Positions 52,701 to 56,627 are shown, counted from the whole stretch's first letter. The stretch: 62,100 nt of DNA, filler included, from Sluysia triapertura (GCA_046118255.1; 4 parts of 4 records of this genome joined end to end with filler, not necessarily neighbours in it), one strand, 5' to 3'. The notes: generated by a model not told the origin, from the letters alone. Translations and numbers: made by a program.

Positions 52701-53964
52701 ATTTTTTATATCGATCGGTTTTCATTGAAACTTCGACTCTATTTATTTTTGATTATAAAATTAAAAATGACTTCGAACGACACTAAGTACATTTGTACTT
52801 GCATATTCCAGATCTGCAAGCAGTGCCTATGTGACCAGATTAATTTTCTGGTGAAAATTTCAACGAGAATAAACAAAATTAGTTCGATTGTTATTTTCAA
52901 TCATTTTGTGCTGATATAATGAAAGATGCTGCATCTAATTATATCCATGTAGACTGCATTCGACATAATACTACTCGTCAATCACAAAAATACTTCTCAT
53001 CAATCAAATAATATGTATATGATTATTAGAATTGTGGCGGCAAACCTAATATTTATAAATTTTATTTCACCAATACACAACAAAATCACTCTTCAGAATA
53101 TTTCATATTTGTTATATTTACAAACATTCTAAATATAAAATTCCGTAACATCATAATCTTATTCAACATCGAAAATCATCAAACATATCGCACATTCCAT
53201 AATATCTTACCTATTTTTTTATCAAAACCTTTTTCATATTTTATTTCTTTCGTATCCACTAAATCCATTTTCATACCTCTAAACATTTTAAAGTCACAAC
53301 CTGTCAACATCCAAACTTTACTTTCATTCAAAACCATCGATCTACATTTAAAAATTCATCTAAAACATTTTATTCATTGTCTAATGAAATTAGAAGCACA
53401 ACTACACCTTAAACCATCGAACACATCTTAAAATCAATCTAAAACATTTCACATTTACAACATTAATATTCAATCTCAAATATCACTGAAAATTAAATTA
53501 ACACTTTGATACCATTTTAGACATTGCAGTCAAAATAACATTCCTTTAACATTTTAGTTATCCATTATTTCCTTTAAACATTCTCTTATCAGCTCTTTCC
53601 ATAATCACCGAATTAAGTCTCTTCCAAAGGAAATAAGAATTACAACTGATATTCCAAAAAAGCATTTAAGGAAAGAAATGAAGAATTTACATAATCAACA
53701 AAGAAAAGAACTAAAAACAATTTTATTTAAAAGAATTAAGTTAAAAGAATTTTATTAAGCTTATGTTTAGAAATTTTAAAGTTTGAAAGAAAAGATTATG
53801 TTGAAAGAACAAAAGAATTTATGCATATTTTTATTTTTCATTTTCCTTGTAATCATTTATTATTATTATTATTACCTATTTTATTATAATAATGACTATT
53901 ATTTTTAATCATTTAATTACAATTATAAAATCATTATTATTATCATCAATTTTAGTAGTATAAT

Positions 53965-54170
53965 CTGTAACCAGTCGACAGTTAATTCAATTAAATTAAA
54001 TCGAAATATCGTATAAACTGTCGACTGATGACAGTTGCTGAGTGTCTGGCATCACCATCAGCATTTTTCTTCTGCGCGAATACTAATACTTCGTTAATAT
54101 ATTTGATTGGACGTTCAATCAATCATATAACTCTACATACTTATTTTCACTGTTACAGTACGTCCAATCA
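53965..54170. repeat. Double spaced inverted-repeat module, cassette copy C
   Basis: CTGTAACCAGTCGACAGTT (53965-53983)/AACTGTCGACTGATGACAG (54016-54034), 17/19; perfect TGATTGGACGT (54104-54114)/ACGTCCAATCA (54160-54170). Confidence 0.8.
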
Positions 54171-54320
54171 TAAGAAAAAACTTAATCATCAAATATTTTA
54201 GAAATACTGAAATCAGAAATAAGAATTATTATTTTATAAAACAAGTTAAAAATTTTATATCGTACTGAAAAGATAAAAGATTTAAAAGTTTCGATTTAGT
54301 TCTTTATCTCAATATTTATT

Positions 54321-54950
54321 ACGCCTGATAATTTTTAGTATATTTGCTCAACATTTAGAATGGTTATTAGATATTTTGAAGAATCTTCAAAGCGATAATA
54401 ATGAACTAGGTAATACAATTAAAAGTCAAGAAATAATGATATATTTCAAGGATGATAATTTTGTATTTGGTGAACGATTTAGTCTTCTACAACAAATTAC
54501 ATTAGAAGAAATGATGTATTTTAAAAGATTTCATGTGCGTTGTTTTATAAAGTTCAGTGATCCATGGCTATTAGCACCTACCACATTAATCTTGGTATCT
54601 AAAATTAAGGAATCTAATGTAATTCACCAAAAGATGATTACACAAACTTGTAACAATGTCGAAAGTCAAGCTGAATATAGTCACATACACGACTTCGATC
54701 AATTCATGTTGATGAAAGATGCACTATTATTGATAACAAATCTAATTTAATCTTAACCGGAAATTCTGTAAGAAAAATAATCAAAATATTAGTAATAAAA
54801 CGACCGAATATATGTAGAGTTGGCGATAAAACTATCTCTGCCATTAATTCCATAAGTTGTGTCTTAGAAGATTATAGTTTTGTTTTACTGATCAAAATAT
54901 AATTAGATTTAAAAAAATTAGTACAATGTTTCCTCCAATAAATATTCCAC
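54321..54950 (+). pseudogene. CCNC: Cyclin C pseudogene
   Basis: ACG-P-D-N-F-TAG corresponds to MAGNFW; QHLEWLLD to HYLQWILD; YFKRFHVR..IKFSDPWLLAPT..LVSKIKE to YFKRFYAR..LKSIDPVLMAPT..LASKVEE; later frameshifted GDKLSLPL and TMFPPINI. Confidence 0.8.
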
Positions 54951-56627
54951 ATCACATTGTCGAACATCATATCGATATGATCAATGTTGCACAAAAAATA
55001 TAGCGAGTTCAAATCTTTACAATGTCCGTTCCAGGCAGACATGTCAAGGAAATGCATTAAATTTGGAATTTTATGTAAATATTTTCATTCAATCGACCAA
55101 ATTGTATCCAAAATCTAATACAACCCATTCTAGACTTCGACAAAATCAGTTTTCAAATAAGTAAAGAGCACTAAAAGGAACATGAAGGCAAGATTCAATC
55201 AATCAGGTGTTGAAACAACAGAATTAAAGTAATATTAAATTTTAATAATCGATTAATATTTAATACTTGTTTATTTGTATCATTTTAGGAACCTGCAACC
55301 GATGAAATTGACAAAGTGTCCGTGGATAAATGTTTTAGACAATATTTATAATTACCATTTAAATCACGAATGTTTCGTTTTTTTAACTGATTGTGATAAA
55401 TATATCCCAACATTTCTGTATTTTTATTTTATAAATTTAAATGCAAACGTATTTGTTCATAGTAAACTTAGTGTAATAAAGATTTTAAAACAAGTTCAAC
55501 ATTTACTTATAGTTCCACACTTTTAATAATATTAACTTAAAATTATTATGTTAATTTACCCTCCACAAGGATTAATTATTATTATCATTAACATTAATAA
55601 TATTATTATTACCATAATCATTATTATTATTATCATTAACATTAATAATATTATTATTACCATAATCATTATTATTATCATTATCACAAATTAATGATAT
55701 TAAATATTGAGCGGAGAAAAAGCAACTCGAACATGGAAAAAGTTAAGAAAAGTTATTTATTTGTACTTTCTAAAAATCTCCTACTACCACTACTACTTCA
55801 GCGAGAAAGTTTTGGTTTTTCTTGATCTTGTGTTCGGTTTCGGTTTCTTTTCTTTTTTGTGAATTTTTTGTAAAAATTCGACTGCTTAAATAGCATTTTT
55901 ATGATGCTTTGGAAAATTAAAAATCGTAAATTAGATGTGTCTATTCTTTTTTAGTTGGTGATAAGCCGACAAATTTTACTGATTGAATTTCGATAACAAT
56001 TTCCGCCTGTGTCCAATTTCGTTATCTTTTTATTCATATTTTTAGTATCATTAAATTAAAATTTAATATCATTATTATAAGCTATTCTATTAATAAAGGG
56101 ATTTATTAACTTAAATTAAGGATTAAATTAATAAAATAAATTTATTTTTCTATAGGAATCTTTTGTTGATACATTGTGCATCAACTGTTCCTTGCATGTC
56201 AAGTTCATTAACATATTTGGATTGGTATATTTATAAACATTAATTTGATATATATTAATAATTAAACATCTGAACATATTTAACTTTAATTTTAAATTAT
56301 ACAAACTAATAAAATAACTAATTTTTACGTTGATGTGCTTCAATATACTTCATCATTAAAAATACTAATAAAACTCAATATTATACACTAAATCTAATAT
56401 CATTATATCATGAACAAGCATTTTTATTGAGTCATCAAATTGAACAATTAATTATCAAATGTACTTTAATTTTTTTAACAAATAAAATCCTGTAAAGAGT
56501 TATTTCTTCGTATTTCTCATTTCGTATTTCCATATGCTTATAATATCTTATCCTTGGTTCTTCATTAATGTTTATTTTATTTTGTTATCCTGAGTCATGT
56601 TTGACTCTTGTCCTTCATTAATCCCAA

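Follow-up and report, generated by a model that had tools for sequence, protein, structure and literature searches.

Evidence for a dispersed, bounded unit with a processed piece of cyclin C in Sluysia triapertura

Our analysis supports the view that positions 53033-55567 of the window (the whole stretch of Sluysia triapertura DNA analysed here, 62,100 nt with filler) form a dispersed, multi-copy, and bounded unit with integrase-type ends and a processed piece of cyclin C. This 2535-bp stretch, termed module C, starts with TGTGG and ends with CCACA. Whatever the route of its spread, it is quite probably a mobile unit with processed cargo. The reading that we favour, at a little short of an even chance, is that module C is a long solo LTR of a Gypsy-type retrotransposon with a chimeric gene inside the LTR.

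Boundaries and copies of module C

The left junction reads AGAAT followed by TGTGGCGG at 53033 and the right junction reads CCTCCACA at 55567 followed by AGGAT. An earlier note on this DNA had reported a terminal TG...CA pair with near-matching flanks AGAAT and AGGAT. Both are present in the sequence: the 8-bp end repeats agree at seven of eight positions and the flanks at four of five.

53028-53032, plus strand: left flank AGAAT, putative target-site duplication (4/5 against the right flank)
53033-53040, plus strand: left end TGTGGCGG, which fits TGTNR (sequence; contig depth)
55560-55567, plus strand: right end CCTCCACA (sequence; chance test; fading depth)
55568-55572, plus strand: right flank AGGAT, putative target-site duplication (sequence)

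Module C presents short inverted TG...CA ends of about 7 bp, as for a Gypsy/Metaviridae solo LTR, and these ends depart from TGTTRNR at position 4. A single mismatch in the putative duplication would be in keeping with copies that diverge by 8-15%. Taken by itself, the end motif carries little weight: the window contains 15 such pairs when at most one mismatch is allowed, and a looser rule yielded 327 pairs against 252-311 in shuffles. Within the bounds defined by the reads, the end pair arose in 29 of 3000 shuffles and in 27 of 3000 random window draws (about 1%; draws containing N were skipped yet counted in the denominator of 3000). The pair of module C is the only one in the window with at least five G+C in the 8-bp end, a threshold chosen after this pair had been seen; shuffles gave an end pair of five G+C in 11 of 20 cases and of six G+C in 0 of 20. 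The ends are otherwise strongly asymmetric: no long TIR was found, the inverted match stopping at 8 bp (z 1.2 over 600 nt and 0.2 over 100 nt), and a comparison of the left with the right 600 nt revealed no terminal direct repeat (z 0.0).

We aligned the contigs of one public run (X1) to positions 52000-55575; this run may be the source of the assembly and not an independent sample. X1 is the sole run with the stretch, no RNA run is listed as containing it, and the listing offers no evidence on expression. The region was fitted by 3204 contigs, 2278 of which were less than 95% alike. A separate repeat lies at 52000-52239, outside module C. Summed contig depth, which does not equal copy number, was 20-63 and mostly 20-26 in the flank bins (52240-52959), 11,000-17,500 in the left arm at 53080-53439, 1,300-3,600 up to 53799, 200-1,540 around the inverted repeats, and 110-690 over the cyclin, finger, and last exon. 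Contigs with a common difference numbered 106 at 53339, 48 at 54003, 17 at 54450, and 16 at 54619, and further downstream 29 at 55047 and 12 at 55279. Because differences were shared throughout the interior while the flanks kept their low depth, we conclude that the cyclin part is multi-copy and that the flanks are not. With 16-17 contigs per cyclin-site difference and 106 at one site of the arm, the cyclin-bearing unit may be present, as a rough figure, at some 10-25 loci.

Going by contig depth and by a unique flank contig that spans from 52100 and stops at 53082, the left boundary would fall in the interval from 52960 to about 53053, in agreement with 53033. On the right side (40 contigs), depth was 200-340 at 55331-55450 (about 330 at 55401-55430), 30-53 at 55471-55560, and 20 at 55561-55570, where the contig of the locus itself accounts for 16 and the extra depth drops to the single-copy level. 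Two contigs depart at 55497 and others at 55466; the departure at 55466 looks like divergence and not like an end, since the letters past that point, judged by eye, remain similar to the window. Loose letters before 55398 had suggested that four contigs carry other cargo, an idea that was dropped because these letters also look like the window by eye (17 of 30). Bin arithmetic suggests that one other contig follows the window to about 55563. No other copy among the 40 contigs showed the right end base by base, and the far end is compatible with 55567. A 24-base pattern of the arm had 0 matches in metagenome contigs.

A second TG-ended sequence in the window is flanked by an exact duplication.

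47047-47285, plus strand: 239-bp insertion, TGTGGTG...CGCCCATA, with the exact 5-bp duplication TTGAT

This insertion sits inside a dispersed repeat, between the two TTGAT copies, and a paralogous repeat near 56440 (minus strand) presents one TTGAT and no insert, which is an empty site. The insert and the empty paralogous site together indicate that TG-ended elements with 5-bp duplications occur here. The insert has an AATAAA at 40 nt from its end and none on the minus strand. It is possibly a short relative of module C (z 0.6 against module C, which is not significant, and z 7.3 against the end at 8868), a kinship that is suggestive only. The two strands together hold 84 TGTNRYG starts, and the five with the strongest C skew (11856, 47047, 53033, 8868, and 19029) all lie on the plus strand. 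End-anchored 100-nt alignments among 53 TGTGG sites ranked 8868 first as a partner for 53033 and likewise for 47047; against composition-keeping shuffles, only the pairs 47047-8868 and 8868-11856 (z 4.0) stood, with z 0.6-1.2 for the left end of module C. No right end with a duplication was found within 8 kb of the left-end-like starts 8868 and 11856. A candidate right end of module B at 29735 has three mismatches in 12, no left partner was found for it, and its direct similarity to the ends of module C is not significant. The window as a whole has about 24% G+C and holds exons of a dynein heavy chain and of a CPSF_A-family protein, which we take to be SF3B3.

These results bear on whether the unit has two fixed ends. 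It is conceivable, although we consider it rather unlikely, that the mobile module comprises the left arm and promoter only, recruiting downstream cargo with a variable right boundary, so that CCTCCACA followed by AGGAT would be a chance match near the end of a copied tract of variable length. Such one-ended spread would account for the much higher repetition of the left arm relative to the right end, the thinning out of other copies at 55470-55497, the starts 8868 and 11856 without a matching right end, and the 15 motif pairs of the window. It fits poorly with the roughly 1% chance of the end pair within the bounds, with the contig that appears to continue to about 55563, and with the 239-bp insert, a two-ended TG element from this same window.

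Cargo and promoter-like part

The features of the interior are, from left to right:

53033-53950, plus strand: non-coding left arm, the most repeated part (composition; contig depth)
53972-54027, no strand: inverted repeat 1 (IR1), 12-bp perfect arms (53972-53983 and 54016-54027) and a 32-nt spacer
54104-54170, no strand: inverted repeat 2 (IR2), 11-bp perfect arms (54104-54114 and 54160-54170) and a 45-nt spacer
54321-54750, plus strand: decayed front half of cyclin C (PDB, profile, alignment, sequence)
55023-55088, plus strand: C-x9-C-x6-C-x3-H zinc finger, Unkempt type (PF25427 profile match)
55229-55288, plus strand: putative 60-nt GT-AG intron that keeps the finger frame (sequence, with predicted splicing)
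55289-55526, plus strand: putative last exon, 78 open codons (open frame)

The best similarity of the copy is to cyclin C, across the N-terminal cyclin box (PDB E 2.5e-12; own profile E 1e-24), and all 12 PDB matches at E up to 1 were cyclin C (5xqx and others). Significant homology spans residues 9-128 and the alignment reaches about residue 150. The copy consists of a start relic without ATG, one stop, a one-base frameshift, and then 137 open codons; an intact frame with both cyclin folds is absent (no ATG, an early stop, a frameshift, and one fold). The relic, T-P-D-N-F-stop at 54321-54338, aligns with M-A-G-N-F-W of homologues (P0082, P0088, and P0094), and lies 16 nt (five codons and one base) ahead of L-E-W-L-L. 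Its reported position, 151 nt past the CCAAT pair, was recovered when counting from 54169. The earlier note had described a host cyclin C captured from its start codon: the capture does begin in the start codon region, but it covers only residues 1 to about 150 and is part of a chimera, not a whole gene. Neither profile nor tblastn searches detected C-terminal cyclin homology or a second cyclin fold downstream in module C, which rules out the likeness to the C-terminal part that had been seen by eye at 54750-55200.

All ten top-ranking tblastn matches of the copy come from parasitic flatworms. A tree of 34 rows placed it with 10 neodermatan proteins and P0094 (support 100/98) on a very long branch (4.55 changes per column). 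Together, these matches and the tree make a flatworm host likely, though not firmly so. The closest cyclin protein among 76 matches was 39% identical, and no parent or near-identical cyclin protein was found among 105 plus 3 candidates. Eight of the 40 variant rows shown (of 453) fell in the cyclin frame, four, two, and two of them at codon positions 1, 2, and 3, respectively.

Parasitic flatworm gene models break before L-E-W (four models: P0005, P0081, P0087, and P0091), between D and V (two: P0095 and P0155), before R-x-S (one: P0155), and after K-V-E (one: P0002). We infer from these breaks four intron sites, which thus come from gene models of parasitic flatworms and not from the host's own gene; presumably they agree with the exon borders of human CCNC. 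The copy crosses all four presumed sites without insertion, which indicates a spliced template unless the host lost those introns. A partial, intron-free, and possibly chimeric mRNA piece, as in LTR-mediated retrocopies, would therefore be present, given intron sites taken from relatives. The claim that no intron is evident across the cyclin box is borne out at these four sites, but a likely 60-nt intron lies further downstream.

This intron, the finger, and the last exon lie downstream of the cyclin piece and were overlooked previously. The Unkempt-type CCCH finger matched Pfam PF25427 with E 1.3e-4 and 22.2 bits, under the cut-off of 31.1; its frame had 0 matches to the PDB and holds six stops over 179 codons. 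The open frame of the putative last exon was equalled in length by 40 of 20000 shuffles and its stop lies 41 nt ahead of the right end. No family match was found for this exon, and the Atlas gave no usable match for it or for the module B ORF. A solo LTR would show AATAAA with a GT-rich stretch behind it close to its 3' end; here, the only AATAAA near the right end, at 55475, is inside the last-exon frame, and G makes up just 10% of 55289-55567. Since a finger, a GT-AG stretch, and open codons follow the cyclin half, the cargo is, as read from its sequence, a decayed chimera of a cyclin front half, linker, finger, likely intron, and last exon.

Ahead of the cargo, the left arm is G-poor (C 21% and G 5% over 53033-53600) and then A-rich with (ATT)n, and it is weakly similar to the arms of modules A and B (z 4.2-4.3, a level reached by none of 40 shuffles). 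IR1 and IR2 are two of the seven perfect GC-containing inverted repeats in the whole window, five of which belong to modules A, B, and C, while five shuffles gave 0-1. Each arm of IR2 carries a CCAAT word, and IR2 is the predicted promoter part of module C. The double inverted-repeat module that had been proposed is present in C as two perfect repeats, but these are not sequence homologues of those of A and B (z<3), and the CCAAT pair faces the other way. The statement that the cyclin relic occupies the same slot as the genes of A and B holds loosely, the distance from IR2 to their first ATG being 262 nt in A and 112 nt in B. The three modules have a common layout with differing letters. Behind the promoter-like part (54170-54330), we found no TGG primer-site start.

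The unrelated inverted repeats of the three modules would be expected if module C were a plain duplication or an ordinary cyclin C retrocopy among unrelated repeats, with no mobile unit at all. We regard this as the least probable of the explanations considered here. Its interior is multi-copy and its flanks single-copy, the cyclin is cut mid-way and followed by a non-cyclin finger, and the sequence behind the cyclin piece contains no poly(A) tract.

Possible routes of spread

We prefer a solo LTR because LTR replication brings with it short ends, a 5-bp duplication, and chimeric capture from an RNA template, as described in the cited parts of PMC3601003 and PMC5131818. The latter source reports that capture by template switching yields partial, chimeric, and re-mobilised retrocopies, and short inverted repeats at LTR ends are described in the former. 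Lengths of 1.9-6.5 kb are given for Ogre LTRs in an account that also covers giant Gypsy elements of planarians (PMC6431247). Under the solo LTR reading, the inverted repeats with their CCAAT words would act as a Pol II promoter for a transcript comprising leader, cargo, finger, intron, and exon. The reverse transcriptase of a partner element may have changed templates to a spliced cyclin C mRNA packaged alongside, which would have placed the 5' half of cyclin C behind the inverted-repeat promoter. Copies of the loaded element would then have been inserted at some 10-25 loci by an integrase of retroviral type, which would need just the terminal few bases and leave 5-bp duplications, and LTR-LTR recombination would have produced single units that later decayed. 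We infer the promoter function, splicing, RNA template, and integrase action of module C.

Several observations do not favour a solo LTR. Module C and its surroundings yielded no second LTR, PBS, PPT, or gag-pol, and the window no full-length element. The right end is not common to the many left-arm copies, and the AATAAA at 55475 falls within the last-exon frame. The apparent retention of a sense-strand intron also counts against an LTR, as repeated passage through RNA should tend to remove it. The earlier proposal of a transduction into a solo LTR or an integrase-mobilised element agrees with a bounded multi-copy unit and a processed piece, but Ginger proper fails on terminal repeat length.

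The kept intron would be explained if the LTR were read in reverse, and so would its survival of retrotransposition. The abundant left arm would then be R-U5 on the minus strand, with the cargo antisense in a variable U3 and a promoter acting both ways. The left arm is indeed the shared part, its minus strand is G-rich and C-poor with several AATAAA, and the CCAAT words face both ways. However, T-rich DNA would contain AATAAA on its minus strand by chance alone, and the AATAAA of the 239-bp insert lies on the plus strand only. Moreover, the capture would require a separate retroposition step, since template switching presumably sets the mRNA in the sense of the element RNA. We consider a reversed long solo LTR very unlikely.

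The kept intron, the kept promoter, and the missing PBS, PPT, and second LTR could also be accounted for by a non-autonomous DNA-level element. Such an element, with short TGTGG...CCACA ends, would be mobilised in trans by an integrase-like transposase of the Ginger2/TDD type, and would have taken up the cyclin piece as a cDNA in the course of gap repair or gene conversion, in the style of Pack-type elements. Sizes from 239 bp to more than 2.5 kb would fit as well. The ends agree with TGTNR and TDD elements yield 5-bp duplications according to the cited part of PMC2836005, and multi-copy Pack-TIRs of animals are described in PMC8277862 as far as cited here. Nonetheless, Ginger TIRs measure about 40-300 bp against an 8-bp match here (z 0.2-1.2), and the ends of module C are strongly asymmetric. 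The loss of four introns would still demand a reverse transcriptase, and no transposase was found among the 14 ORFs scanned (12 plus 2 more) of the 21 window ORFs of at least 100 aa. We therefore regard this DNA-level route as unlikely, and retain the solo LTR as the favoured reading.

Relation to known systems

Judged by the features tested, module C is not a Ginger, a TRIM, or a Helitron. Helitrons and Helentrons make no target duplication and have TC...CTRR-type ends with a 3' hairpin; module C differs from them in its TG...CA ends and putatively duplicated flanks. The source families of two of its cargo pieces are cyclin C (PDB 5xqx) and the Unkempt finger (PF25427).

The LTR-mediated retrocopies described in the cited part of PMC5131818 likewise consist of partial, intron-free, and chimeric host pieces within a non-autonomous unit that undergoes further copying. 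In that account, the cargo replaces the internal sequence between two LTRs and does not lie inside one, whereas module C is one TG...CA unit with no flanking LTRs in direct orientation and brings its own promoter-like repeats and finger, with a last exon behind a likely intron. As presented in the cited parts of PMC3601003, PMC6431247, and PMC4558846, solo LTRs of Gypsy/Metaviridae resemble it in their TG...CA ends and asymmetric interior, and their 4-5-bp duplication would correspond to its putative one; module C differs in its coding chimera, in a weak position of the poly(A) signal, and in that no full-length partner was seen in the window. The TRIMs Cassandra, Helenus, and Ajax, in the cited part of PMC10886601, carry host-derived sequence inside the LTR and have solo forms with 4-5-bp duplications. 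However, they carry a small Pol III RNA gene and measure about 0.3-1.3 kb in full. A TRIM has two short LTRs with PBS and PPT and, in TRIMp3, a small-RNA gene in the LTR; module C has no direct repeat, and Rfam gave 0 matches in the window.

Among DNA transposons, Ginger1 and Ginger2/TDD share TGTNR termini and a similar total length with module C, and TDD-4/5 have a 5-bp duplication like its putative one, as summarized in PMC2836005. The same summary gives Gingers long TIRs, a transposase, and mostly 4-bp targets, none of which were found in module C. Pack-TIRs and Ssk-FB4 offer a case of an animal host gene piece multiplied inside a non-autonomous element, but the cited part of PMC8277862 describes long TIRs, capture at the DNA level, and a 9-10-bp duplication for FB4. 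Cargo between long TIRs, the feature of Pack-TIRs and Pack-MULEs, is absent in module C.

It is possible, if doubtful, that module C represents an undescribed class of integrase-mobilised expression vectors: single TG...CA units without TIRs or internal repeats that can be reloaded. If so, promoter, Unkempt finger, intron, and last exon would all come from the unit, which would be loaded with 5' halves of spliced host mRNAs from the start codon. Each load would multiply as its own subfamily, and the window would hold a complete copy with both ends. We found no description of such a unit in titles and abstracts of a largely open-access literature, and Repbase-type libraries may already include the family. 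Gene capture by transposons is known, and the animal cases in the cited accounts place the cargo between two LTRs or long TIRs; units such as this would constitute a distinct route to chimeric genes, by which mRNA-derived 5' halves of housekeeping genes are repeatedly fused to a fixed RNA-binding finger, under a promoter that the unit itself provides. To these systems, the window adds a candidate complete copy, with its right end and putative target duplication, and an empty-site control.

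A contig joining the left arm to cyclin sequence

Among the contigs of one public run, one fused the left arm of C (the element with TG...CA-type ends that holds a decayed front half of cyclin C) directly to cyclin sequence, connecting position 53359 to position 54588 with 1228 nt missing; the short side of this join comprises 30 letters. It is possible that this contig represents an internally deleted copy.

Modules A and B

The two other double-inverted-repeat modules of the window each carry an orphan gene. The orphan ORF of module A contains, at 886-1168, an internal tandem duplication of 129 nt (43 codons) whose copies are 80% alike. 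Module B presents the following layout:

27903-29735: module B, with two ORFs and a candidate right end

The stop of its second ORF lies about 55 nt upstream of a sequence resembling the right end of C (3 mismatches out of 12), and searches of Pfam and Atlas with the module B ORFs returned no match. By eye, a 53-nt GT-AG intron (29124-29176) could link the two ORFs in frame. Artificial TTAATTAATTAA spacers fill assembly gaps at 14006-14105, 26850-26949 and 49692-49791, one of which interrupts the left arm of module B.

Left-end-like starts and a TG-ended insertion

At 8868, 11856 and 19029, TGTNRYG starts lead into DNA that is rich in C and poor in G. These probably represent left-arm remnants; a convincing right end was not found for them. 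A short TG-ended insertion was identified within a dispersed repeat:

47047-47285: 239-bp TG-ended insertion with an exact TTGAT duplication, inside one repeat copy
about 56435-56445, minus strand: empty site in another copy of this repeat
44769-45230: third copy of this repeat

The three starts, the 239-bp insertion, modules A and B, and C all share the plus strand.

Other repeats and transposon-like stretches

The window further contains:

52000-52239: separate, very abundant repeat about 800 nt left of C, where contig depth sums to as much as 14,000
23414-23807 and 39034-39420: dispersed repeat pair, 81% alike
41235-41361 and 58467-58612: dispersed repeat pair, 70% alike
35547-35745: MITE-like near-palindrome of about 200 bp, perfect arms of 21 and 15 bp

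Finally, judging by eye from its motifs, we take the stretch at 2600-3900 to resemble a decayed transposase of the pogo/Tigger type.
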